Assembly: GCA_028715115.1 (NCBI GenBank)
Contig: JAQUSN010000001.1
Location: forward strand, 191,067 to 255,066
Reading direction: 5' to 3'
Source: Patescibacteria group bacterium
GTDB taxonomy: Bacteria; Patescibacteriota; Patescibacteriia; UBA2591; UBA4787
Length of the DNA stretch: 64,000 nt
Below the pieces are notes generated by a model. It ran no database searches. It had not been told where the DNA came from and saw only the letters and a program-made list of their open reading frames with translations. Position 1 is the first letter of the stretch. Each line of letters opens with the position of its first letter. The position numbers and the translations under genes are program-made. Positions 11,783 to 56,465 of this stretch are shown piece after piece.

Positions 11783-11995
11783 TTGGGCGAATAATTTTTT
11801 GTTTAAAAATATTTATAGTAAATTGGGAATATGCAAAAAGTAACCCTTCAGGCGCAGACTGTTCGGGGGGGGGTATTTTAGCTCTATTTAGTCCCCAGGT
11901 CTGTCGGCAGGCCTGGGGACGTTGAAGCTAAAATAAAACGGGAGTCGGCGACGAGCGCCTTCTCCCGCGTAGTTCCTCCATGGACTTCTTGTTTG

Positions 11996-13036
11996 TTATC
12001 CTCCCTGTCGATCCTTGCGCAACGCCAGGGCCAGCTTCGCGATACACTCAACGGCCTCTTCGCTTAGCGTGCCCGGATTACCGACCTGTTCCAGTTCTTC
12101 GCGTAGATCGGCGATGACGAGCTGGCGCACGGCCGGGCCTTCTGTTTCGGCTACGTGCACTTCTGCAGCGCGCGCTGTCTCTCTTCGTGCCTGGACCGAC
12201 GATGCTCCTCTCTTGCCTCCGCGATTCTTAGTCGAAACGCCGGCAAGATGACCCCGCCCTCCACCATTACTGCGCCATTCTTTCTCTGGTAGGAGGCTTT
12301 GGTCAACATCCACCAGTAACGAATCTGTAACGACGCCGAGTGCTGAGGCCATGCGCTGAATGGTCTCTATTGACGGCAGGGTGCCCGACTTCTTGAAGCT
12401 GACCCAGGCTGACTGAGGCCGGGCGGCATCGGGAGATATCGCCCTACCTATTACCAGGAGAGTGATCCCTTTTTCTGTCTTGGCCTCTTCGACGTTTCGG
12501 AGAAGCGCCTTCTTTGATTTCGCCTCTCCTTCTTGCGGTTTACGGGGCATAGAGCCCTTCCTTTCGATTGATACCCTTCTTGCCTTGGTGGTCTTTGCTC
12601 TTGTGTTCGGCCTTGTGTTGGCCGCCTTCACTGTTACTGTTTGTGGGTCAGGCGGATCAGCGGCGGTAGCCGTTGGCTTTGGGTTGGTTGCATCATCTTC
12701 TTGGGCTGGCGTAGTCTTTTTGGGGTCGTGCCCATTGTGCATTATAGCGCTCGGACTAATGCCCAAGCGCTGGCAACAGGCGAGAATCTGGTTGCTGGTT
12801 AATAGGTTCCAGGCAGTATCTCTGAGCCAGCTGTGCCAGACTTCAATCGGCCTGTCAGTCCTGGGGCTAACGATAAGTCCCATGGCCGCTTCGCCATACA
12901 TTCGCCGTTCAGCGGCGTCCAAAGCGATGGCTTCTCTCTCTACTCGCGCTGCTTCAAGCCTTCTGGCCACTAGCAGTTTTTGCGCTGTTCCGTCGTGGTT
13001 ATGATGGCCCGCCGCTTCTATTGGGGCCACACTCAT
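11996..13036 (-). CDS. GC-rich islet A: 346-aa protein with a central XRE/Cro-type helix-turn-helix segment
   Basis: Clean ORF at about 58% GC in a 35% GC backbone. The segment ...SAWVSFKKSGTLPSIETIQRMASALGVVTDSLL fits the XRE HTH pattern. It has a strong SD (AAAGGAGGTGTT-ATG) and a TTGACA promoter at 13092-13120. The function of the N- and C-terminal domains is unknown. Confidence 0.6.
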   Translation of the reverse strand: MSVAPIEAAGHHNHDGTAQKLLVARRLEAARVEREAIALDAAERRMYGEAAMGLIVSPRTDRPIEVWHSWLRDTAWNLLTSNQILACCQRLGISPSAIMHNGHDPKKTTPAQEDDATNPKPTATAADPPDPQTVTVKAANTRPNTRAKTTKARRVSIERKGSMPRKPQEGEAKSKKALLRNVEEAKTEKGITLLVIGRAISPDAARPQSAWVSFKKSGTLPSIETIQRMASALGVVTDSLLVDVDQSLLPEKEWRSNGGGRGHLAGVSTKNRGGKRGASSVQARRETARAAEVHVAETEGPAVRQLVIADLREELEQVGNPGTLSEEAVECIAKLALALRKDRQGG

Positions 13037-29224: not shown

Positions 29225-29455
29225 GCCATTACTACGCTCAGTGGTAGAGCTCTTATATCGACAATTTTATTAATAGGCGTGCATAGCTCAGCGGCCTAAT
29301 CCAATTCTCTAAGAACTGGACGGCCCGTTCGAGTTTTTTTAAAACTCGAATTAGGGTAGAGCACGACTCTTATATCAATAAATTTTCAATATTTAGTGTC
29401 TTGAGTGCGCGTGTAGCTCAGTGGTAGAGCACCACTCTTATAGCGGTAGATTCCT
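29225..29455 (+). repeat. Three truncated or interrupted tRNA-Ile(UAU)-derived 5'-half copies (pseudo-tRNA fragments)
   Basis: 29232-29262 ctacGCTCAGTGGTAGAGCtCTTATAtcgac. 29276-29376 GGCGTGCATAGCTCAG[63-nt insert]GGTAGAGCACGACTCTTATATC. 29406-29449 GCGCGTGTAGCTCAGTGGTAGAGCACCACTCTTATAGcgg. All share the D-arm and anticodon-arm core of the intact tRNA at 29470. Confidence 0.6.
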
Positions 29456-29469
29456 ATTATTCTCTAAGT

Positions 29470-29541
29470 GGGCGCATAGCTCAGTGGTAGAGCACCACTC
29501 TTATAAAGTGGGGGTCGATGGTTCGAACCCATCTGCGCCCA
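29470..29541 (+). tRNA. tRNA-Ile (anticodon UAU, AUA-decoding type)
   Basis: GGGCGCA-TA-GCTCAGTGGTAGAGC-A-CCACT-CTTATAA-AGTGG-GGGTC-GATGGTTCGAACCCATC-TGCGCCC-A. The anticodon loop CUUAUAA carries U34-A35-U36. The acceptor stem is extended by flanking complementary ctctaagtg / cacttagag. Confidence 0.8.
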
Positions 29542-29618
29542 CTTAGAGAATAAAATAATGTTATCTACCGATATATAGGTCGCAACTTTATAAATTATTT
29601 TAATTGTAGCGACCAATA

Positions 29619-29656
29619 TAAAGTGGGGGCCTCTATTAGAACCCATCTGCGCCCAC
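29619..29656 (+). repeat. Truncated 3'-half copy of tRNA-Ile(UAU) with a replaced T-arm
   Basis: ATAAAGTGGGGGcctctattagAACCCATCTGCGCCCACTTA versus the intact ATAAAGTGGGGGTCGATGGTTCGAACCCATCTGCGCCCACTTAG. Confidence 0.6.
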
Positions 29657-29682
29657 TTATAAATTAATTATTGTTTTAAATT

Positions 29683-36017: not shown

Positions 36018-37640
36018 ATGCACAAAAATAAACTTTGGACCAATTTCGTTCTAATTTTGATTTTAACGATTTTTGCTTTATTGATTGATATACCCCGTTT
36101 GCCAAGTTGGTTTCCGCTTCACGGGTGGTTTACCGATCAAAAAGTTCACCTCGGTCTAGACCTACAAGGTGGCACGCAGTTAACCTATCAAACCAATACT
36201 TCTGATTTGCCGGCTGATCAACGAGCTGCGGCGGTCGAGGGTGCGCGAGATGTTATTGAACGGCGCGTTAATGTTTTCGGCGTTTCGGAGCCGTTAGTAC
36301 AAACGGCCAAGTCCGGAGACGAGTGGAGAATTATTATCGAGTTGCCCGGCATTAAAAATGTTAACGAAGCCATTAAAATGATCGGCGAAACTCCGACATT
36401 AGAATTTAAAGAAGAGGCGCCAGCCAAGGTTTTGACTGATCAAGAAAAAAAGGAAATTGCCCAATATAATATTAATGCCCAAAAAAAAGCATCGGATGTT
36501 TTAGCTAAGGCGCTAAAGCCGGGCGCTGATTTTGCCGCTTTAGCCAATCAATACTCAGACGACCCCGGCACTCAAGGGCAAGGCGGCGATCTGGGTTGGT
36601 TTAGCCGCGGCGTAATGGTTAAGGAATTCGAAGATGCCGCTTTTACTTTAAAGAAAGGACAGATTGCTAAGACATTAACTAAAACAGAATTTGGTTATCA
36701 TATTATTAAAAAAACCGATGAGCGAACCACCGATGATGCTAAAGAAGAAATTCGCGCTAGCCATATTTTGATTAAAACTGAATCAGAGGCTGCCATTGCT
36801 GCTGGTGGCGGTTGGGCCTACACGGGCTTAACTGGTAAGCAGTTGAAAAGCGCGACCATGACCTTTAATCCGCAAACTAGTGAACCGGAAATTTCTCTGG
36901 AATTTAACGCCGAGGGCGCGAAATTATTTGCCGACATTACTGCTCGCAACGTTGATAAGCCCGTTGCTATATTTTTAGACGGCTATGCGATTAGTATTCC
37001 GACTGTTAAAGAAGCAATTACGAGCGGCAAGGCAGTGATTAGCGGCAAGTTTGGCGTTCAAGAAGCTAAAGACTTAGCGCAACGCTTATCAGCCGGCGCC
37101 TTACCCGTACCGATTAAACTAATTAGTCAAGAAAGCATTGGACCGAGCTTGGGTCAAATTGCTGTGCAAAAAAGCATTGTTGCTGGCGTGATTGGCTTTC
37201 TGGCTGTAGTTATTTTTATGGTGGTTTTTTACGGTCTGAACGGATTAATCGCTTCTTTGGCGTTGTTGATTTATGCTTTAATAAACTTGGCATTATATAA
37301 ATTAATTCCCGTAACCTTGACGCTGGCTGGCATTGCTGGTTTTATTCTGTCGATCGGTATGGCCGTTGATGCCAATGTTTTGATTTTTGAACGCATTAAA
37401 GATGAGCGCCGTTTAGGTAAAACCGGCACAACCGTCATCGATGATGGCTTCCGCCATGCCTGGACCGCTATTCGTGACAGTAATATTACTACCTTAATTG
37501 CCTGTTTCATTTTATATGAATTTGGCACCGGCTTAGTCCGAGGCTTTGGCTTGACCCTGGGCATCGGAGTTCTGCTCAGCATGTTCAGCGCCATTACAGT
37601 GACCCGAGTAATTTTAAAATTATTCGTTTATAAAAAGTAA
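36018..37640 (+). CDS. secD: Protein translocase subunit SecD carrying an inserted PpiC/parvulin-like segment (nt about 36480-36785)
   Basis: LDLQGGT start of the P1 domain and C-terminal SecD TM bundle. Residues about 155-255 read [74 protein letters not shown]...IRASHILIK, a parvulin rotamase signature. Confidence 0.85.
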
Positions 37641-37710
37641 TTTTCTAATTTCTATTTTCTAAATTTCCCGCTGAAGGCGGGTCAGCCTCGGGCTGATAAT
37701 TCATAACCTT

Positions 37711-47343: not shown

Positions 47344-47694
47344 ATGAATGACAGAGTAAATCCGAAGATTAAGCAGTTCCTTCAGAGGTACTTCGGTGGG
47401 ACCGACCTGGCCTCGATCATGACATTCCTGGATAAGGGCTTCAGTCTCAACGGCCAGGTAGTCGTTTCCACCATCTTCGTCTCTGCCCAAGAGTGCAGAG
47501 TCCCCGTGACTCGTGTTTTGGCAGAATGCGAGAAAGAGTGGGACAGGAACTGGAACTTCCAACACCCAGAACTCAGAGGAAACCCCGATGCTCCCGGTGG
47601 CGCTGGTATGCAGAACAGGGCTTCCCTCGAAAAGATCTATACCGCTCTCGGTATACCAAGTCCGAGAGAAGGGCGGGCCAGGAAAAGGGTCTGA
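47344..47694 (+). CDS. GC-rich islet J1: 116-aa soluble protein of unknown function
   Basis: AAAGGAGGTGA SD 7 nt before the ATG at 47344; the track start at 47323 is a TTG inside the SD region. About 53% GC. A terminator (tcggggctgcc-gtag-gcagccccga plus U-run) follows at 47722-47755. Confidence 0.55.
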   Translation: MNDRVNPKIKQFLQRYFGGTDLASIMTFLDKGFSLNGQVVVSTIFVSAQECRVPVTRVLAECEKEWDRNWNFQHPELRGNPDAPGGAGMQNRASLEKIYTALGIPSPREGRARKRV

Positions 47695-47848
47695 GCCCGA
47701 GACTCGCTGTTTCGCAAATCGTCGGGGCTGCCGTAGGCAGCCCCGACTTCTTTATTTAATGAAAGGGCCCAGCTTATTCAGCTAGGGCCCTTCTCTTATA
47801 TGCACGATGTGCATGATACCTCCCCTTGATTGTTAGTGGAGCGCGTTG

Positions 47849-48617: not shown

Positions 48618-49003
48618 CTCAGAGACAAACTTCGATTGGATTGGACCTTCTCTTGCCAGTATCCCATCAACGAGAGAGCGTAGCCGAAGGCTACATAGCC
48701 AGCGACCAGCACGACGAGCATCACTGGCGAGAAAATGAGTTTCGGCCAGAGATATAGCGCGGCAAATCCGCTCAGAAGTATTCCTGACAGTATGACACCC
48801 GCGGCGAAAGAACCCTTACCCCTTCTCACCGACCCTAGCATAAGGCCGGTGACCATAATGAAGTGTGGAAGGAAACGGGCTATCATCTCTGCGTTGAAAT
48901 TGTGCCGAAGCGTGCCGCTGTTTATCACGGCATAGCCTCCCAGCAACCATGCCGCAACATAAGCAGCCATCAGGAAGGCACATCGGAGTACGTGTCGTAT
49001 CAT
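48611..49003 (-). CDS. GC-rich islet J3: 130-aa four-TM membrane protein
   Basis: About 58% GC. Promoter module cTTGACAaaaggtcaaaaatat at 49040-49075 on the minus strand. Confidence 0.5.
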   Translation of the reverse strand: MIRHVLRCAFLMAAYVAAWLLGGYAVINSGTLRHNFNAEMIARFLPHFIMVTGLMLGSVRRGKGSFAAGVILSGILLSGFAALYLWPKLIFSPVMLVVLVAGYVAFGYALSLMGYWQEKVQSNRSLSLSG

Positions 49004-49124
49004 GCAATCCTCCAGTTTTTAGATCTTAACCATTATTCTATATTTTTGACCTTTTGTCAAGATCATATTTTTAATTATTTTTCTTGCTATTAAAATTTTA
49101 ATATCGTTCTATATAGCCTAAGAT

Positions 49125-49163
49125 TAAAAACAAAGAGGACCTTGATCGAAGATCAAGGTCCGT
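49125..49163 (-). terminator. Terminator of islet gene J4
   Basis: Perfect ggaccttgatc-gaa-gatcaaggtcc hairpin plus a U-run on the minus strand. Confidence 0.65.
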
Positions 49164-49206
49164 CTCGCATGTTCACGTTGCCTCCTTTCTAGGCGTTTGC
49201 CTAGTC

Positions 49207-49407
49207 TTACGACTGCGCTGATTCCTTCTGTTTCTTTTCTTTGCCCGCTTCGACGGCATCCGATATGATCGCCACAATAGCGGAGCAGGAGAGGAGAACC
49301 ATCGTCATCACGAGCATTCGTTGAACGAATGTCGGGAAAGAGATGATCGTGATGATCGCCGCCCCGACAAACCACAGTCTGCCGAACAGATAGAGAGGGT
49401 TATGCAT
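49207..49407 (-). CDS. GC-rich islet J4: 66-aa two-TM membrane peptide
   Basis: GGAGatattATG. Promoter cTTGACAaaaaggcaaaaatatgcTAAGAT at about 49430-49465 on the minus strand. Confidence 0.5.
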   Translation of the reverse strand: MHNPLYLFGRLWFVGAAIITIISFPTFVQRMLVMTMVLLSCSAIVAIISDAVEAGKEKKQKESAQS

Positions 49408-49551
49408 AATATCTCCTTAGTTGTATTAATATCTTAGCATATTTTTGCCTTTTTGTCAATCCTTATTTTTTTAGAAAGTGAGGGGGGTTAAGATAAGATT
49501 TTTTGTAAATTTAATGGAGCGGACTTGCAGTCCGCTCCACTTGGTAGGCAG

Positions 49552-49746
49552 TCATTCCTCCTCGATCCAGACCTGGGTATCGGCCCTGGCGACGCCTATC
49601 GTGAGGTGTCCCAGATTGCCCTGCTCGTCAACTGATGTTGCTGATCCGGATTCCCCTTTCAGGAAGCGTACCTGCTTTCCTTCCCACTCCATCCAGAAGA
49701 ACCTTCCTGCTGGCACAGAGTCCCAATAAGTCTGTCGTTTATTCAT
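49552..49746 (-). CDS. GC-rich islet J5: 64-aa soluble protein
   Basis: aaaGGAGtgctcATG start at 49746 (the track start is a GTG at 49752). Terminator hairpin at 49513-49539. Promoter TTGACA-17-AATAAT at about 49765-49795 on the minus strand. Confidence 0.45.
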   Translation of the reverse strand: MNKRQTYWDSVPAGRFFWMEWEGKQVRFLKGESGSATSVDEQGNLGHLTIGVARADTQVWIEEE

Positions 49747-49835
49747 GAGCACTCCTTTGTCTTTATTATTTCATATTTTTTTGAATTTGTCAATGGTTAT
49801 AATTTTATAATTTATAAGCAAAAGCGGCATTTTTT

Positions 49836-50044
49836 GTAAATAAAGCGGGGGCGGAGAGCCCGCCCCCTTGGGTTCAAACGTGATCTTGGCCGGACGACTT
49901 CTTCTAGGCCGTATTCACGCTTGACGCCCTGAACCGATTTACCATGTATCCTCCATTGGCCTCGAAGAGGCCACTTTGGTACTGGATGGCCCTTGAGCCC
50001 GCAATTGGACAGATCGTCCTTAATTGAAGGGCTCATCAACCATC
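49836..50044 (-). ncRNA. Candidate GC-rich small RNA J6 (about 210 nt), possibly dual-function with a 13-codon ORF
   Basis: Promoter TTGACG-16-TATAAT on the minus strand at 50051-50078. Terminator gggggcgg-agagc-ccgccccc plus U-run at 49847-49867. Internal hairpin GGCCUC-UU-GAGGCC. It contains an SD-ATG (AUGGAGGauacAUG) opening MVNRFRASSVNTA-stop. The track ORF 49812..50039 overlaps the terminator and looks spurious. Confidence 0.35.
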
Positions 50045-50128
50045 AGCTTTATTATAATATCACATTCAGTTTCGTCAACATCTTAGCTTGCAATAAAGTA
50101 ATGTTTTGTTAAAATATAAATTAATTAT

Positions 50129-50674
50129 ATGTCTAAAAAAATTATTTTACTCGTTGCTTTAGAAGAAGAATTCCCCAAAAAATTAGTTCCTAAGGGAGTT
50201 AACGTTTATTATACTCATTGCGGCAAGGTTAATGTAGCCATTGCGGCAACAAGGGCATTAAGCAAGATAAAAAGCAAAAATGTTTTAGTCGTTAATTATG
50301 GCACGGCCGGCTCGGCCAAACATAAAATAGGCGCACTCTTAAAGGTGACGCAATTCAGACAGGCGGATATTGATGCCAGTGGCCTTGGTTTTCCTAAAGG
50401 AGTGACGCCGCTCGATAAAAAGTTTTTTAAATTTAATACGGAAAAAATTAATTTTGGTCCTGGCGAGACTTGTTATACGGCCGATAATTTGCAAAATTTT
50501 CCGTTAGAAGATATGGAGTCATACTCGATTGCCAAAGTTTGTAAAATCTACGGCTTGAAATTTGTCAGCTATAAATTTATTACTAATAATTTTAATAAAA
50601 ATGCGGCTGCTGATTGGAAAAATAACGTTAAGAAAGGAGCTAAAATATTTTTAGATAAACTTTTAAAGTTATAA
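50129..50674 (+). CDS. Purine nucleoside phosphorylase family protein (MTA/SAH nucleosidase-like)
   Basis: 181 aa, PNP_UDP_1-like pattern (VNYGTAGS... central Gly-rich loop, C-terminal ...YESYSIAKVC). Native AT-rich composition; terminator at 50699-50730. Confidence 0.5.
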   Translation: MSKKIILLVALEEEFPKKLVPKGVNVYYTHCGKVNVAIAATRALSKIKSKNVLVVNYGTAGSAKHKIGALLKVTQFRQADIDASGLGFPKGVTPLDKKFFKFNTEKINFGPGETCYTADNLQNFPLEDMESYSIAKVCKIYGLKFVSYKFITNNFNKNAAADWKNNVKKGAKIFLDKLLKL

Positions 50675-50777
50675 TTATAAAAATACGATATTTAAAATTG
50701 AAAAGACGAGTTTTAAGCCCGTCTTTTTGATTAAGAAAAACGCTGACCCGAGAGAGCCAGCGTCGAGGCTGAGTCCG

Positions 50778-50936
50778 CTATGATTGTGTCATTATCGGCT
50801 TGTAGGCGTCGTGGATTTTGGAGCACGCCCAGTCGGTGAGAGAACTTGGCGTATAGAATACTCCATTGTCCTGGACGACCCGAATCATTGGCTTTTCATA
50901 GGGCTTCCTCTTCCTGAGTGGCAATGTACGTGACAT
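50778..50936 (-). CDS. GC-rich islet I1: 52-aa small protein (below the ORF-track size cutoff)
   Basis: Strong SD gAAAGGAGGcggcaATG. The ORF reads MSRTLPLRKRKPYEKPMIRVVQDNGVFYTPSSLTDWACSKIHDAYKPIMTQS. Promoter TTGACA-16-TAAAAT (-35 at 50995-51000, minus strand). Confidence 0.45.
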   Translation of the reverse strand: MSRTLPLRKRKPYEKPMIRVVQDNGVFYTPSSLTDWACSKIHDAYKPIMTQS

Positions 50937-51075
50937 TGCCGCCTCCTTTCCGAGGGATTAAACCTCATTATTATTTTAAAATTAATTTTATTTTTGTCAA
51001 CTCCACAAAATTTTAAAAAGTAAAAGGCTGTTGTTGATATTATCTCCAACAGCCCGTAGCACGAGCAGCTCGTCA

Positions 51076-51345
51076 TTAGTCTATGCCCGCCTCAGGGCCT
51101 CGCCAGGCCTTAGATATCTTCCTTCGCCGAATCCGACTTCGATCTTTCTTTTGCCTTTGCTGATGGTCGTCACGAGCAGGCGGTGTCCTCGACACTTTGG
51201 GTTAGCCACGGCTCTCATCAGGTATGTGCCGGGAGCAAGCCGACGACTCTTCCCTCATGAAGATCTTCCGGCTGAAAAGTCGAGCACGTCCAGGCACTGG
51301 CTGATTGTTAAGACGAATCTGTCTGGCTTCATGAAGCCTCCTTAT
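51076..51345 (-). pseudogene. GC-rich islet I2: ORF interrupted by an in-frame TGA after codon 25 (possible pseudogene, readthrough or recoding)
   Basis: AAGGAGGcttcATG (51343-51345). MKPDRFVLTISQCLDVLDFSAGRSS-TGA-GKSRRLAPGTYLMRAVANPKCRGHRLLVTTISKGKRKIEVGFGEGRYLRPGEALRRA in one frame. Terminator hairpin ggctgttg...caacagcc at 51026-51054. Confidence 0.3.
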
Positions 51346-51445
51346 GTTTTATTTTATTCTTATTTCCAAAAATGAAAAGGGCCTCAAATAAAATTATATC
51401 GGGCGGGAGCTGTGTGCTCCCGCCCGAAAGTTGTAGACTAGCTCA

Positions 51446-51754
51446 TCAGTACCAGGTGGGCCCTGGACGGAAGGCGATCTGTTCTATCCGCTGCTGTCGT
51501 TTTATTCTTTCGACTTCAGCGGCAGCGGCTACTCGCCGATTGGCACGCCATCTCCTCTTCCTGGCGGTTCTCAGAGTGTTCAGGCCCTTGTCTGCGGCCT
51601 TGGACCTTGAGTGTCTTCCTCCGGCGGGCCGTAACATGGTCACGACCTTGTCTTCTCTCGCCCCACACGTCGAACATGCGTTCGGCAACGATCCTTTGCC
51701 TGAGAAGGTCTTGGTGGTGCCGCAGTTTGTGCAGCGCTGAGTGTATCTTGCCAT
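51446..51754 (-). CDS. GC-rich islet I3: 102-aa basic zinc-ribbon protein (CxxC...CxxC)
   Basis: MARYTQRCTNCGTTKTF...ACSTCGARE, then an Arg/Lys-rich tail. AGGAGtactgATG. Promoter TTGACA-17-GATAAT at 51819-51847 on the minus strand. Terminator cgggcgggagc-tgtgt-gctcccgcccg at 51400-51426. Confidence 0.55.
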   Translation of the reverse strand: MARYTQRCTNCGTTKTFSGKGSLPNACSTCGAREDKVVTMLRPAGGRHSRSKAADKGLNTLRTARKRRWRANRRVAAAAEVERIKRQQRIEQIAFRPGPTWY

Positions 51755-51892
51755 CAGTACTCCTGTTTAGGTAATAGAATTCGAGAAATACGACCAGCCC
51801 CTCCATACAGATATAGTTATTATCTCAAAATTTTATCATTTTGTCAAGGCGGTATTTTTGACTTTTTTTTCCACCGGATTAAAATAAAAAGC

Positions 51893-53017
51893 ATGAAAGC
51901 GTTTTTTAAAAGAATAACCAAAAGATATCATAGCCCTGATTATTTATTTATAATTTTATTGGGTTTGGTTTTGGTTTTGGGGTTAATATTTTTAACTTCG
52001 GCCAGCGGCGTGGTTGGTTTAAGGCGATTCGGTAGCACCATTTATTTTTTACAACACCAGATTTTAATGGGCCTTATTCCCGGCTTGATACTTCTGGTGA
52101 TTTTTTCTTTTGTTGATTATCGTTTTTGGCGTAAGTGGGCCACGGTAATTTTTATTTTGAGTTTGATTTTAATGGCCTTAACCTTTGTCTCCGGCGTGGG
52201 CTTGGCCCACGGCGAAGCGCGGCGCTGGATTTCTATTTTTGGTATCGGCTTCCAACCGGCGGAAATTTTGAAGCTATCTTTTATTATTTATTTAGCCGCC
52301 TTTTTCGACAGCCGCCAGAAAAAGATAAAAACCTGGACCGGATCTTTTTTACCGCTAGTTATCATTTTGGGAATTGCGTGCGCTTTAGTTATGGCGCAAA
52401 AAGACATGGGCACGATGATGGTGATTTTTATGATCGCCATTAGTATTTATTTTCTGGTTGGCGGCAATTTATTGCACATGCTGGTTTTATTTGGCGGCGC
52501 TGTTTCCATATTTTTCGTTTTAATTAAAGCTGCGCCTTATCGCATGGCGCGCTTTATTACTTTTCTTTACCCGCAAATGGATCCGCTTGGCGTGGGTTAT
52601 CATATTAATCAGGCGCTTATCGCTATCGGTTCGGGCGGAATTTTCGGTTTGGGCCTAGGTCATTCGCGCCAAAAATTTTTATACCTGCCGGAATCTTACG
52701 GCGATTCTATTTTTGCCGTCATTGGCGAGGAGCTGGGATTTTTAACGACGATTTTAGTACTTTGTCTTTTTGTTGCCGTGGCTTTGCGCGGGTTAAAAAT
52801 AGCCAAAGCCGCGCCGGATTTTTTTGGCCAGATTTTGGGCGGCGGAATTTTATGTTGGTTTATTTTTCAAGCCATGATCAATATAGGCGCCATGTTGCAT
52901 CTTTTTCCATTAACCGGTATACCTATGCCGCTGGTTAGTTATGGCGGCACGGCCATGATGGTGCTTTTGGCGGCCTTTGGAATTTTGATTAATATCTCGC
53001 GCCAAGCCAGGGAATAA
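51893..53017 (+). CDS. ftsW: SEDS-family peptidoglycan glycosyltransferase (FtsW/RodA)
   Basis: 374 aa, 10 TM. Conserved FtsW/RodA/SpoVE blocks (PAEILKLSFIIY..., MAQKDMGT, G.PLPL.SYGGT). Confidence 0.8.
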   Translation: MKAFFKRITKRYHSPDYLFIILLGLVLVLGLIFLTSASGVVGLRRFGSTIYFLQHQILMGLIPGLILLVIFSFVDYRFWRKWATVIFILSLILMALTFVSGVGLAHGEARRWISIFGIGFQPAEILKLSFIIYLAAFFDSRQKKIKTWTGSFLPLVIILGIACALVMAQKDMGTMMVIFMIAISIYFLVGGNLLHMLVLFGGAVSIFFVLIKAAPYRMARFITFLYPQMDPLGVGYHINQALIAIGSGGIFGLGLGHSRQKFLYLPESYGDSIFAVIGEELGFLTTILVLCLFVAVALRGLKIAKAAPDFFGQILGGGILCWFIFQAMINIGAMLHLFPLTGIPMPLVSYGGTAMMVLLAAFGILINISRQARE

Positions 53018-53069
53018 GGGGCTTGACATTTTTCAAAATAAAGTAATAATATATCTGATTGGAGGTAAT

Positions 53070-53423
53070 GTGAATACATCTCGATTCAGAAAGCTGTTGG
53101 TTGGGGTCTGCGATAAGCTCGACCTACTGCCTCACGAATATCCGGACGTTGACGTGAGTTGTTGCCGCGGTCAAATTTCGGTACAGCTTACGGTGACGGA
53201 GCCGGACGACCGTTATCCAGGAGATGAGTTGGTGGTGCTTGACCCTGCTCGGCGAGCCGACGCTCCTGCTTACAGATTCTTTCGCGGTCACGGCGGCGAG
53301 GTACTCGGCTCGTTTATAAGAGCGGTGAGAGCGGCAACTCCGGGTGGCGTTCGAGTCCAGATTAAGGCGCGCTATGCGCGGCTGGGGGTCAGCTTAACCC
53401 GAAGATGCGTCGTTCAGTCCTGA
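53070..53423 (+). CDS. GC-rich islet F: 117-aa protein of unknown function (GTG start)
   Basis: About 62% GC. Promoter TTGACA-17-AATAAT at 53024-53052. GGAGG-taat-GTG. Terminator gaggcgaac-aaccg-gttcgcct plus U-run at 53444-53475. Confidence 0.45.
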   Translation: MNTSRFRKLLVGVCDKLDLLPHEYPDVDVSCCRGQISVQLTVTEPDDRYPGDELVVLDPARRADAPAYRFFRGHGGEVLGSFIRAVRAATPGGVRVQIKARYARLGVSLTRRCVVQS

Positions 53424-53499
53424 TCCAACAGAAGATCGAACGAAGAGGCGAACAACCGGTTCGCCTTTTCTTTTTCTATAAAAATGCTAAAATAGACTC

Positions 53500-54750
53500 A
53501 TGATTGTTCTCTCTTTGGTTTTAGCTGCAGTATTTTTATTAGCTACAATCCGCTGGCCCAGAGTCGCTCTTTTTTCGTTGCTTTTATTTTTACCGGCCTA
53601 TCAAATTAGGGTTGATTTTTTGGGTTTACCCACTACTGCCTTAGAGGTAATGATTTTGGCGTTTTATTTTGGCGTATTGATTGGTAATTTTAAAACATTC
53701 GGACAAATCAAAAAAATTTTTAGCGGTTGGTTGTGGGTGATTCCGGCTTGGCTCGGAGTTGGTTTTATCGCCGCTTTGGTTTCGCCTAATTTTACTCTTG
53801 GTCTGGGACATTGGCGGGCTTATTTTGTCGGACCGATTTTAGTTTTAATGGCTGTCGTTATTTTAATTCGGCGAGACGAAAAGTTAAAAGAATTAATTAT
53901 TCCGACCTTGGCTTTTTCGGCCTTGATTTGCGCTCTCTGGGCCGTGGCCCAGAAATTTTTCGGCGGCGGAGTAATGAGCACCGAAGTTTGGGGTGCGGCG
54001 AAAGTTTGGCGCGCGACCGGGCCGTTTCCGCAACCTAATTTTTTGGGATTATATTTAGCGCCCATTGCGGTTCTGGCTTTCGGGCAATTCATTATTTTAG
54101 TAAAAAAAATTGATAAAAAAATAATTTTTTATCTCGCGGTTTATGTTTTTTCTATCATCGCTCTACTCTTGGCTCGCAGTGAAGGCGGCCTCTTAGCCCT
54201 AGTCTTTGGTACGATTTTTTTATTAATACTTTATCGGCCCAGCAGAAGGGCGACGATAATTATTTTGATAATTTTATTTATTTTACTTGCTTTAATCCCA
54301 ACCTCTCGCCAGTATTTCGTTCAAAAAGCTTCGTTTAACGGCTTGTCAGAACAACTACGTTTAAATATTTGGCATGGCGCTGCCGATTTAATTAAAGCGC
54401 ATCCAATTTTTGGCGTTGGTTTGCGTGGTTATCAGCAATTAATTTCTCATTATCAAAAGCCGTATTATCAACCCGGGACCGATAAGGTTATTTCCGTTGA
54501 GACTCATCCTTATCCGCATAATTTATTTTTAGCGCTGTGGGCTGAAGCCGGCCTCTTGGGACTTATTGTTTTTTCGTTGATTGTTATTAAATTTTTCATT
54601 CAGGGTTTTAAGAAAAAATCAGTCTTTCATTTGACGCTTTTAGCGGCAATGTCGGCAATAATTATTCATGGCCTGGTTGACACTCCTTATTTTAAAAATG
54701 ATTTATCAGTTTTATTTTGGTTTTTAATCTCAATGATGATTTGTTTCTAA
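53500..54750 (+). CDS. O-antigen ligase-like (Wzy_C domain) polytopic membrane protein
   Basis: 416 aa, about 11 TM with a central periplasmic loop containing conserved Arg/His (…ARSEGGLLAL…). The mRNA is leaderless-like (TGcTAAAAT 6 nt before the ATG). Confidence 0.45.
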   Translation: MIVLSLVLAAVFLLATIRWPRVALFSLLLFLPAYQIRVDFLGLPTTALEVMILAFYFGVLIGNFKTFGQIKKIFSGWLWVIPAWLGVGFIAALVSPNFTLGLGHWRAYFVGPILVLMAVVILIRRDEKLKELIIPTLAFSALICALWAVAQKFFGGGVMSTEVWGAAKVWRATGPFPQPNFLGLYLAPIAVLAFGQFIILVKKIDKKIIFYLAVYVFSIIALLLARSEGGLLALVFGTIFLLILYRPSRRATIIILIILFILLALIPTSRQYFVQKASFNGLSEQLRLNIWHGAADLIKAHPIFGVGLRGYQQLISHYQKPYYQPGTDKVISVETHPYPHNLFLALWAEAGLLGLIVFSLIVIKFFIQGFKKKSVFHLTLLAAMSAIIIHGLVDTPYFKNDLSVLFWFLISMMICF

Positions 54751-54813
54751 AAACAAAGACCTCTGCTCGGGGATAAAACCCAAGACAGAGGTGGGGGTCA
54801 AGGAGTCGGGGAA

Positions 54814-55020
54814 CTATGCAGCACTCAGCCTTTCGCGCAGTTCGTCGGCTTTGGATTTGAACCACTTCGACCCTGTTAGCCAGGCCAGTGCCGCCAGGAT
54901 TGCCCACCAGAGGTATGCGGCGATGACTACGACCAGGCTGAGAACCATGACCATGAGGAATACTACAAGGAACGATGACCATGGCGTTGTTCGCTGCTGT
55001 GTGCGATAGGTTGTTGTCAT
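54814..55020 (-). CDS. GC-rich islet G: 68-aa single/double-TM membrane peptide
   Basis: ATGGAGGctacATG start at 55020. Promoter TTGACA-16-TATAAT at 55049-55076 on the minus strand. Terminator about 54760-54800. Confidence 0.5.
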   Translation of the reverse strand: MTTTYRTQQRTTPWSSFLVVFLMVMVLSLVVVIAAYLWWAILAALAWLTGSKWFKSKADELRERLSAA

Positions 55021-55183
55021 GTAGCCTCCATTACTTTACATTTTTATAATTATACATTTTTAAGCCTTATTGTCAAGATTGTCTTATCCGCCAGCTGGCG
55101 GACTATAGGGTGGCTGAGTGCCTGTCCGCCAACCGGCGGAGTCGAAGCTGTTTTATAACAAAATGAAGTGACCTTACTAGGGC

Positions 55184-55270
55184 GGAGGGGTGCTAGAGTG
55201 GACGAATAGGTCGGTCTCGAAAACCGATATACCTGCAAAGGTATCGCGAGTTCGAATCTCGCCCCCTCCG
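55184..55270 (+). tRNA. tRNA-Ser (anticodon CGA)
   Basis: GGAGGGG-TG-CTAGAGTGGACGAATAG-G-TCGGT-CTCGAAA-ACCGA, long variable arm TATACCTGCAAAGGTATC, then GCGAGTTCGAATCTCGC CCCCTCC-G. Confidence 0.85.
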
Positions 55271-55285
55271 TTTTGGTAGGGTTTT

Positions 55286-55440
55286 CCGCGTCATTTGATG
55301 CGGCACCCTATTGGTCGCGAGTTCTGAGCCCTAGGCTCATCTCAGCCCAAGGCTGATGAGCCTAGGGCTCACGCCTCGGGCGGAGAATCCCTGCCTACCG
55401 CCTGCCTAACGGCAGTCAGGGCAGGCAGGTCGCCCCCACC
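55286..55440. repeat. GC-rich block of nested palindromes downstream of tRNA-Ser (about 20-bp near-perfect hairpin at 55325-55371 plus CTGCC/GGCAGG repeats)
   Basis: tgagccctaggctcatc / gatgagcctagggctca gives 17-bp perfect arms around tcagcccaaggct. This is followed by ccctgcctaccgcctgcctaacggcagtcagggcaggcagg. Confidence 0.5.
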
Positions 55441-55451
55441 GCCAGAAAATT

Positions 55452-56465
55452 ATGAGTAAAAAAATAAAATTCAATTTACCCCTAGTTAATACGCATGGCC
55501 ATGCGGCTATGCTTGCTTTTCGGGGAATGGCAGAAGACGTGCCTTTAGATGTTTGGTTAAATAATTATATTTGGCCGGCGGAAAAAAACATCACGCCTCA
55601 ATTTATTTATAAATATACGGACTTAGCTATTAAAGAAATGAAGAGCAACGGCATTAAATTATTCTGTGATATGTATTTTTTTGCCGAAGAAGTGGCTCGC
55701 GCGGCAGAAAAAAATAAAATGCCGGCGGTTATCGGCGAAGGAATTTTAGATTTTCCCACCCCCAGCGCCAAAACAGCGGAAGAGGCGTTGCTGAAAACAG
55801 AAAAGCTATTACAGCAGTATAAAAATCATTCTTTTATTAAAGTCTCCGTGGCGCCGCACTCGATTTATACGGTTAGCAAGGACAACCTACTTAAGGCTAA
55901 AGAATTGGCAAAAAAATACAACGCTTTATATCAGATTCATTGCGCTGAAACAAAAAAAGAAGTTGATGAATGTTTGGTAAAAAATAATTTGACCCCTGTC
56001 GCTTATTTAGATAAACTTGGTGTGTTAGATGATAAGACGCTTTTAGCACATTGTGTTTGGCTGACCGATGAAGATATAGAGATTATTGCCAAGCGAAAGG
56101 CGAAGGTGTCTCATTGTCCTTTAAGTAATTTAAAACTTGGTTCTGGCATTGCTTCAGTTAATAAAATGTTAGCTAGGGGCATCGCGGTGTCGCTAGGAAC
56201 TGATGGAGCGGCTAGTTCTAATCGTTTAGATGTTTGGGAGGCAGGAAAGTATACGGTGTTGTTACAAAAGGGCATTAATTATGATCCGGCAATTCTTACC
56301 GCTCGGCAAGCCATAGAAATGATGACCATAAACGGATTAAAATCCTTGGGCTTTGATGTTTTTTTAAATAAAACCATTGAATCTTGGCAACAAAAAATTA
56401 AAGAAAACAAAGATTATAGCTTTTTATATGATCGTCAGGTTAATGAATTGAATTTTGAGATTTAA
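55452..56465 (+). CDS. Amidohydrolase-superfamily nucleoside deaminase (MTA/SAH deaminase or guanine/cytosine deaminase-like)
   Basis: Metal ligands NTHGHAAM (HxH), HCAE, HCV.L, and LGTDGAASSN. Confidence 0.6.
   Translation: MSKKIKFNLPLVNTHGHAAMLAFRGMAEDVPLDVWLNNYIWPAEKNITPQFIYKYTDLAIKEMKSNGIKLFCDMYFFAEEVARAAEKNKMPAVIGEGILDFPTPSAKTAEEALLKTEKLLQQYKNHSFIKVSVAPHSIYTVSKDNLLKAKELAKKYNALYQIHCAETKKEVDECLVKNNLTPVAYLDKLGVLDDKTLLAHCVWLTDEDIEIIAKRKAKVSHCPLSNLKLGSGIASVNKMLARGIAVSLGTDGAASSNRLDVWEAGKYTVLLQKGINYDPAILTARQAIEMMTINGLKSLGFDVFLNKTIESWQQKIKENKDYSFLYDRQVNELNFEI

Follow-up and report, generated by a model that had tools for sequence, protein, structure and literature searches.

Between a tRNA-Ser(CGA) gene and a deaminase gene in this Patescibacteria (CPR) genome lies a short block of GC-rich, nested palindromes, and the question that it raises is whether it is an RNA gene, a regulator of the gene that follows, or a by-product of events at the tRNA gene. 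The initial annotation of the window (the whole stretch of 64,000 nucleotides that was analysed) proposed four identities: a REP/MITE-like element, a remnant att site of an element integrated at tRNA-Ser, a processed sRNA, or an attenuator ahead of the deaminase gene. The reading favoured here, to which I assign a probability of about 0.6, is that the block is a composite DNA relic, made of the 3' end of an older tRNA-Ser copy and of REP-like palindromes, rather than an RNA gene or a regulator. The first two of the proposed identities would then each be partly right and apply together.

A structured block between tRNA-Ser(CGA) and a deaminase gene

The genome has a GC content of 40%. Upstream of the block lie the genes for FtsW (51893–53017) and an O-antigen ligase (53500–54750), separated by a GC-rich stretch without family matches (53070–53423), and then a unit (54814–55076) with a small GC-rich minus-strand ORF (54814–55020) for a 68-aa membrane protein; its ribosome-binding site is GGAGG, its promoter, TTGACA-N16-TATAAT, is perfect, and it is part of a variable GC-rich islet around tRNA-Ser. 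The flanks of the block are those given by the initial annotation. On one side is the intact tRNA-Ser(CGA) gene (55184–55270, plus strand; called by ARAGORN, 54.2 bits with the Rfam tRNA model), which has the acceptor stem GGAGGGG/CCCCTCC, does not encode CCA and is directly followed by TTTT. On the other side is an MTA/SAH-deaminase-like amidohydrolase gene (55452–56465, plus strand), identified by Pfam Amidohydro_1 (4e-58) and by its homologues, beyond which come the genes for an RRM protein and for RecX. An independent Logan contig is identical at the locus, so that a misassembly is unlikely.

The highly structured, GC-rich and nested character attributed to the block was confirmed. The segment 55272–55450 folds at −98.9 kcal/mol on the plus strand (z = −7.5) and at −106.7 kcal/mol on the minus strand (z = −7.8), a stability reached by 0 of 200 shuffles, and the block is the most stable 120-nt segment of the window, also after correction for GC. 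In the spacer that follows the tRNA, hairpin hp1 (55277–55310, plus strand) places TAGGGT...ACCCTA around the small hairpin CCGCGTC-ATTT-GATGCGG, which lies at 55286–55303 as originally reported and contains one G-T pair. Hairpin hp2 (55325–55371) indeed has perfect 17-bp arms, TGAGCCCTAGGCTCATC at 55325–55341 on the plus strand and at 55355–55371 on the minus strand (two matches of the 17-nt arm in the window, against 0.10 expected), and its inner hairpin, TCAGCC-CAA-GGCTGA (55342–55356), has 6 bp. The CCTGCC/GGCAGG repeats were found as well, at 55390–55429 and not at 55395–55435 where they had been placed. The palindromes reported upstream of the tRNA, at 55083–55096 and 55120–55137, are likewise present, 3–6 nt away from these positions: they are two 16-nt palindromes in the tRNA leader (55087–55140), TCCGCC-AGCT-GGCGGA (55087–55102) and TCCGCC-AACC-GGCGGA (55125–55140), in the same nested style as those of the block. 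The window has 11 perfect palindromes of the form NNNGCC-N3-5-GGCNNN, where shuffles have 0.4, and five of the 11 sit around tRNA-Ser.

The split 3' end of a tRNA-Ser inside the block

Comparison of the window with itself revealed pieces of tRNA-Ser's own 3' end inside the block, all on the plus strand. The first piece, P (TCGCGAGTTC, 55315–55324), corresponds to the 5' strand of the T-stem and the first 3 nt of the T-loop; the second, GAATC (55385–55389), to the second half of the T-loop; and the third, P' (TCGCCCCCACCG followed by CCA, 55430–55444, the CCA being at 55442–44), to the 3' strand of the T-stem, the acceptor 3' strand CCCCACC, the discriminator G and CCA. A split-aware alignment of the block with the last 27 nt of the window's own tRNA-Ser is collinear, with 26 of 27 positions identical and a score of 33, to be compared with a mean of 15.6 (sd 2.6, maximum 25) in 1000 dinucleotide shuffles; no match to the block was obtained with any of the ten remaining tRNAs. 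Read across the two inserts, the block contains CGCGAGTTC-GAATC-TCGCCCCCACCGCCA. The final 29 nt of an intact tRNA-Ser(CGA) gene, with its CCA, at the syntenic locus in a related contig, L185, have this very sequence (29/29; score 42, against 17.2 ± 3.1 in shuffles, 0 of 300 of which reach it). As judged by alignment, three collinear tRNA-Ser pieces that terminate in CCA show the block to be the 3' end of a tRNA-Ser (T-arm, acceptor 3' strand, discriminator and CCA) split by two inserts.

The remnant lies downstream of the live tRNA-Ser(CGA) gene, in the same orientation and after a gap of only 44 nt, and its CCA ends 7 nt ahead of the deaminase ATG. It belongs to another allele: it ends in CCA, which the live gene lacks, and the 3:70 pair differs. 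Both strands of the live acceptor stem differ from the L185 type, and the live gene is thus no simple hybrid of an old 5' part and a new 3' part. These features are those expected of the remnant att site first suggested (a displaced 3' end, identical at 29 of 29 positions to an intact allele, downstream and in the same orientation), but the integrase and the island that should accompany such a site are absent: only 44 nt separate the tRNA from the fragment, and no integrase or transposase domain was found in the examined ORFs (43–63 kb). BLAST of a phage collection gave matches to the tRNA only.

A 5' remnant of the old tRNA was sought upstream, and the only candidate, GGTGGGG(G) at 54790–54797, is not significant. 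This sequence, GGTGGGGG, lies 40 nt past the ligase stop codon and is the exact complement of CCCCCACC in the remnant (55433–55440); it may be all that is left of the 5' end of the old tRNA, although its match to the L185-type acceptor stem is statistically not significant.

Other derivations from tRNA were rejected. A second, insert-bearing or permuted, tRNA or tmRNA was discarded because there is no 5' half and ARAGORN makes no tRNA or tmRNA call inside the block. A tandem duplication of the tRNA 3' end and trailer was discarded because the sequence past the remnant is unlike the trailer. The likeness of CTCGGGCGGAG (55375–85) to the leader and 5' end of the tRNA (55177–87) is at chance level. 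The Rfam scan, which had been proposed as a check on the block, returned the tRNA alone at gathering score and nothing but noise at E ≤ 10; the processed sRNA of the initial annotation thus found no support.

The two inserts

Insert 1 (60 nt, 55325–55384, plus strand) lies at the centre of the T-loop, TTC/GAATC. It holds hp2, whose tip is the 55342–55356 hairpin, and a small hairpin, CGCC-TCG-GGCG, at 55372–55382. The dead T-arm is itself palindromic (GCGAG TTC/GAAT CTCGC), and the 60-nt insert sits at the centre of the dyad. Insert 2 (40 nt, 55390–55429, plus strand) is hp3, the interlocked CCTGCC...GGCAGG palindrome, and lies between GAATC and the 3' strand of the T-stem. Both junctions (TTC/insert/GAATC and GAATC/insert/TCGCC) are clean and devoid of target duplication.

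In the window, the 17-mers of hp2 and hp3 have no further copies, even when up to 3 mismatches are allowed, and a scan of the hp2 arm against IMG/VR gave no matches. Hairpin hp3 is 86% identical over 42 nt to an IMG/VR contig (L038), and its core, CCTGCCTRYCSGGYAGGCAGG, occurs in 26 IMG/VR stretches against an estimated 0.4 or so expected, with up to 8 or more copies per contig, in contigs with GC contents between 0.39 and 0.67. In many cases the core itself sits inside a loop that is closed by a C-run/G-run stem. Sequence matches of this number show that hp3 belongs to a dispersed multi-copy palindrome family. Palindromic inserts, the membership of hp3 in this family and a T-loop position shared with other loci (see below) agree with the REP/MITE-like element proposed initially; against it stand the single-copy status of the units within 64 kb and the absence, at the insert junctions, of terminal inverted repeats with a target-site duplication, as a MITE should have.

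Units of 15 nt identical or similar to those of the block occur in other loci (TCAGCCCAAGGCTGA; TGAGCC-N3-GGCTCA; TCAGCC-TCG-GGCTGA), and the sole other occurrence of such units in the window is TCAGCC-TCG-GGCTGA at 37682. There it forms, with CCCGC-TGAA-GGCGGG, a tandem pair of palindromes (37667–37696) styled like the units of the block and located directly past the stop codon of the gene at 36018–37640. A search of the literature for the palindrome sequence found nothing relevant. Across L038 and L159–L183 (IMG/VR; GC 0.39–0.67), a 21-nt palindrome, CCTGCCTGTCCGG(T/C)AGGCAGG, is nearly invariant and present in several copies per contig, often in the loop of a CCCCC...GGGGG stem. A REP-like repeat would not be expected to change so little from one taxon to another, which suggests a protein recognition site of a mobile element.

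Syntenic relatives of the locus

In relatives found through the O-antigen ligase (L184–L190), the order ligase, tRNA-Ser(CGA) is kept, and what lies between ligase and tRNA is different in every one. L184 and L185 are close relatives, with 81% identity between their ligases. L185 has an intact GGTGGGG...CCCCACCGCCA allele of the tRNA, ending in ...TACCGCGAGTTCGAATCTCGCCCCCACCGCCA, and no remnant. The tRNA-Ser(CGA) of L184 is of another type, GGAGGCG/CGCCTCC, also found in L186 and L190, and about 16 nt past it come TACCGCGAGTTC, 62 nt made of two hairpins and GAATCTCGCCCCCACCG, followed by a terminator-like hairpin. The L184 remnant aligns with the L185 tRNA (score 50, against 16.5 ± 3.1) and not significantly with its own tRNA, and the spacer that precedes it is unrelated to the hp1 spacer of the window. 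On these alignments, L185 seems to show the state before, and L184 the state after, the exchange of one tRNA allele for another in which the old 3' end stayed in place. In L184, GAATCTCGCC runs uninterrupted; insert 2 is missing there, and the CCTGCC hairpin of the window is therefore an extra insertion. Altogether, the remnant layout is found in 2 of 7 syntenic relatives and is absent from L185, L186, L187, L188/189 and L190.

Synteny through the deaminase gave no homologues of the block, since both tRNA and block are missing upstream of the deaminase relatives that could be read. In L034 and L035 (71% identity), the gene that ends 5 nt upstream of the deaminase gene encodes a HAD hydrolase and there is no block; in L002–L004 (about 61–64% identity), no tRNA gene was found.

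Several further features of these loci deserve mention. In L184 (4310–4555) and L190 (4198–4458), ORFs of 81 and 86 aa, 48% identical to each other and limited to a GIY-YIG catalytic domain, lie directly upstream of the same type of tRNA-Ser(CGA) allele (GGAGGCG), and in L184 this allele adjoins the remnant of the older one; the pairing may reflect a homing-endonuclease-like linkage. Right after the ligase stop codon of L184 (4231–4300), GGTGG and GGTGGC enclose two TCCGCT...AGCGGA hairpins (52 nt). Joined, these flanks are the first 11 nt of an L185-type tRNA-Ser; alternatively, GGTGG is a 5-bp target duplication. The place equivalent to the small ORF of the window is occupied in L185 by unrelated GC-rich small ORFs, and comparison of the small GC-rich ORFs in these two contigs showed no homology between them or with the other loci fetched.

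Recurrence downstream of tRNA-Ser in other contigs

When metagenomes were scanned with the last 25 nt of the tRNA, 120 tRNA-Ser loci came up, of which 117 are distinct. In several of the loci with a GC content of 0.51 or less, fragments of the tRNA 3' part lie 13–185 nt downstream of the tRNA; among the scanned loci none lies upstream. In the window, L184, L105, L139, L041, L126 and L040, the fragment follows an intact tRNA of its own isotype and has the orientation of that tRNA. The layout in which tRNA-Ser is followed by a short spacer, a T-arm piece, a palindromic insert and the sequence from GAATC to the 3' end recurs in L184, L105 and L139, and less clearly in L093. In L105, a 35-nt copy of the 3' half is followed by a 30-nt insert (two 15-nt palindromes) at TTC/GAAT and then by 17 nt, and a terminator-like hairpin comes after this remnant too. 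The remnants of L139 and L041 have several inserts each, among which are one of about 60 nt in L139 and one that carries a CCTGCC-type palindrome in L041. A 31-nt two-hairpin insert interrupts the anticodon loop in L040; L126 has a 3'-part fragment downstream of its tRNA-Ser, and in L057, L154 and L070 the 3' halves are uninterrupted. L093 reads GGGTTC, 38 nt, GAATCCTCTCGCCTCCG; its 3' piece matches the tRNA end of the L184/L186 type, and the alignment of its pieces with its own tRNA is not significant.

The insert position, TTC/GAAT, is identical in the window (60 nt), L184 (62 nt), L105 (30 nt) and L093 (38 nt), and the probability that four independent inserts fall by chance at one T-loop position is estimated at roughly (1/30)^3. 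All four begin with T (TGAGCC, TGTGCC, TGTGCC, TCCGCT) and three end in GA; apart from these 2–6 nt at their ends, inserts from different genomes are not alignable. The genes that flank the recurrent loci are housekeeping genes (FtsH, LigA, GatA, DsbA, NUDIX), with no integrase among them. Gapped patterns split at the T-loop, scanned in IMG/VR, gave 3 chance hits in coding DNA with no tRNA nearby. A literature search for palindromic insertions at CPR tRNAs found nothing specific, and I know of no description of tRNA remnants in CPR genomes that are recurrently interrupted in a position-specific way; this part of the analysis deserves follow-up.

Proposed origin of the block

Partial tRNA genes arise through the integration of genetic elements (PMC9897764). 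In the scenario that I propose, the 3' end of an old tRNA-Ser gene would have been displaced when the tRNA gene of this variable locus was replaced or rebuilt by incoming DNA, which could be an integrating element or a cassette that carried tRNA-Ser sequence. The dead T-arm would later have been colonised by selfish hairpin units akin to REP/REPINs or to the PATEs of IS200/IS605 elements, units that would favour the single-stranded loops of stem-loops and would be tolerable only in dead tRNA copies. Neither promoter-like sites inside the block nor terminator-like sites in 55271–55451 on either strand were found; for want of both, the block is probably co-transcribed with tRNA-Ser, of which it would form the 3' trailer while also forming the 5' leader of the deaminase mRNA. 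In this transcript it would be at most a passive stable structure.

As in att-type partial tRNA genes, the block is a copy of the tRNA 3' part in the same orientation downstream of the intact gene, its boundary falls at the T-arm/T-loop, its allele differs from that of the live gene, and an 'empty' state exists in L185. It differs from them in that the repeats are 44 nt apart with neither integrase nor island between them, the repeat is split by palindromic inserts, and the live tRNA is no simple hybrid. With so short a gap, the scar of a classical prophage or island could have arisen only if a large deletion followed.

REP/REPIN and BIME elements are associated with RAYT, and the Rickettsia palindromic elements insert into genes, including RNA genes. 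Like these, the inserts are short, nested, GC-rich extragenic palindromes, hp2 consisting of two inverted 17-mers, and hp3 belongs, like REP/REPIN and BIME elements, to a dispersed multi-copy family. Unlike REP/REPINs, each unit of the block is single-copy in the 64-kb window, there is no conserved 5' tetranucleotide of the GTAG type, no RAYT gene was seen among the window ORFs scanned, and the CCTGCC core is common to contigs of very different GC content instead of being species-specific. The inserts resemble the PATEs of IS200/IS605 elements in being made of hairpins and in being cleanly inserted, with no target duplication, immediately 3' of a fixed TTC (in 4 of 4 T-loop cases), the target being the single-stranded loop of a stem-loop; they depart from them in their length (30–62 nt, shorter than typical PATEs), and neither a TnpA or TnpB gene nor extra copies were identified. 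Free-standing GIY-YIG homing endonucleases such as SegB of phage T4 adjoin tRNA genes, and in L184 and L190 a GIY-YIG ORF is likewise linked to a tRNA-Ser(CGA) allele that replaced an older one. Unlike SegB, these ORFs comprise the catalytic domain only, and there is none in the window.

The relic origin gains from the fact that tRNA-Ile of the same genome is also surrounded by its own fragments, one of which has a 60-nt insert in the D-loop. Several facts count against it: there is no integrase, transposase or island within 10 kb; the remnants of other loci always lie within about 200 nt of the tRNA, which looks too regular for random decay; no simple joining of old 5' and new 3' parts gives the live tRNA; and hp2 and hp3 are single-copy in 64 kb, unlike classical high-copy REPs. 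If the relic origin is correct, a striking 'structured RNA candidate' is explained for annotation purposes as a tRNA-gene scar with selfish palindromes, and blocks of this kind will turn up as false positives when AT-rich CPR genomes are screened for structured RNAs. The tRNA-Ser loci of these very small genomes would be hotspots of allele replacement, and their dead tRNA arms would draw palindromic inserts at one exact loop position; should this loop targeting be real, it would imply an uncharacterised insertion mechanism in CPR bacteria, specific for single strands or hairpins.

A bolder extension, which I regard as possible and still unlikely, is that CPR bacteria carry undescribed elements of 30–60 nt, each a pair of hairpins, that insert without duplication into tRNA-type loops, and that their tRNA-Ser genes turn over rapidly through self-restoring cassettes. 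The target loops may be the T-loop at TTC/GAA, the anticodon loop and the D-loop, and the cassettes may consist of a tRNA with a small ORF or a GIY-YIG gene. On this view the block would record a process that is still going on, and P-insert-P' might be the recombination site of the cassettes.

Alternative explanations

One alternative, on the improbable side, makes the block part of a miniature mobile unit that is still active: a non-autonomous cassette, possibly including the live tRNA and the small ORF, would be moved in trans by a recombinase that targets the T-loop of tRNA-Ser, P and P' being the current attL and attR. The mover would be a tyrosine or serine integrase, a Y1 transposase/RAYT, or GIY-YIG-assisted homing. 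The four inserts located exactly at TTC/GAAT, all T-initial and three of them GA-terminal, speak for such a unit, but those of different genomes share only 2–6 nt at their ends. Duplication-free insertion agrees with an element of the IS200/IS605 type; for a tyrosine recombinase, an overlap sequence would be expected on both sides and was not seen. Also in its favour, the replacing allele of L184 is immediately preceded by a GIY-YIG ORF, and in L190 such an ORF lies upstream of an allele of this type; the ligase–tRNA interval differs in every relative; and tRNA-Ile of the window has inverted repeats around it as well as halves of itself that share TATA. No recombinase gene, however, was found in the window regions examined, and there are no more copies of hp2 in 64 kb.

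The main rival, which I hold to be improbable, is that the block is a selected, tRNA-like 3'-trailer RNA of tRNA-Ser, in which the T-stem closes a multi-hairpin junction and leaves a free, acceptor-like 3' tail. Released by tRNA processing, it would act as a stable sRNA, a decoy or a processing signal. The P-insert-P' arrangement follows tRNA-Ser in at least 4–5 unrelated contigs, with conserved flanks and hairpins that vary in sequence while keeping their hairpin form; for the flanks, however, descent from copies of a conserved tRNA gene is explanation enough, and since the inserts are not alignable, there is no evidence of covariation. Insert length is often about 60 nt (60 in the window, 62 in L184, about 60 in L139), but when all loci are considered, inserts vary in number, length (30–62 nt) and position (T-loop, anticodon loop, D-loop). 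The L184 version is predicted to fold as a clean three-way junction, and that of the window has an extreme stability, which is higher still for the minus strand. The stems, on the other hand, lack the G-U pairs of RNA-style stems and are perfect palindromes at the DNA level, and the T-loop motif is disrupted by the insert. The element precedes a terminator-like hairpin in L184 and L105 and therefore lies inside the tRNA transcription unit, and the recurrence of one layout in such a position would fit a selected RNA as well as a relic. Against an RNA under selection stand its patchy occurrence in syntenic relatives (2 of 7) and the absence of an Rfam family.

Finally, a cis-regulatory leader of the deaminase gene, whether an attenuator as first proposed or a riboswitch, is very improbable: the block ends 7 nt ahead of the ATG and, since no promoter lies between the tRNA and the gene, its structure would belong to the mRNA leader, but it has no terminator-like U-tract and no Rfam match at E ≤ 10, its sequence is tRNA-derived with perfect palindromes, and in L034 and L035 a HAD gene takes its place, and in L002–L004 no tRNA gene was found.

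Other sites in the window

The tRNA-Ile(TAT) gene (29470–29541) is surrounded by its own fragments (29230–29660). Three 5' halves end in the anticodon loop: 29236–57; 29281–94 with 29355–74, which is split in the D-loop by a 60-nt palindromic insert; and 29414–42, identical to the gene at 29 of 29 positions. The anticodon loop is also where the one 3' half (29617–55) begins, and TATA is common to both kinds of half. Inverted repeats of about 26–30 nt (CGGTAGAT...TTCTCTAAGT and ACTTAGAGAA...ATCTACCG) stand on the two sides of the intact gene. The site looks as if a mini-cassette that carries the tRNA had inserted into the anticodon loop several times.

Small GC-rich ORFs on the minus strand of this AT-rich genome are found at 54814–55076, 49190–49407 and about 49540–49750, each with a near-consensus TTGACA-N16/17-TAxxAT promoter and a GC-hairpin terminator. 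Those that were read closely are hydrophobic or membrane-like, and none of the ORFs has a Pfam match above the curated threshold. The stretches 50700–51890 and 53070–53423 have a GC content of 0.5–0.6 and contain only low-complexity-looking ORFs, with no Pfam match and no Rfam match at E ≤ 0.1; an Rfam scan of 49000–54800 returned nothing. The two stretches may represent foreign DNA, or structured RNAs that annotation has missed. The window's other very stable folds between genes are located at 11841–12000, where GTCCCCAGGTCTGTCGGCAGGCCTGGGGAC is found at about 11891–11920, and at 47641–47840, which contains CGTCGGGGCTGCCGTAGGCAGCCCCGAC at 47720–47747 and GGGCCCAGCTTATTCAGCTAGGGCCC nearby.
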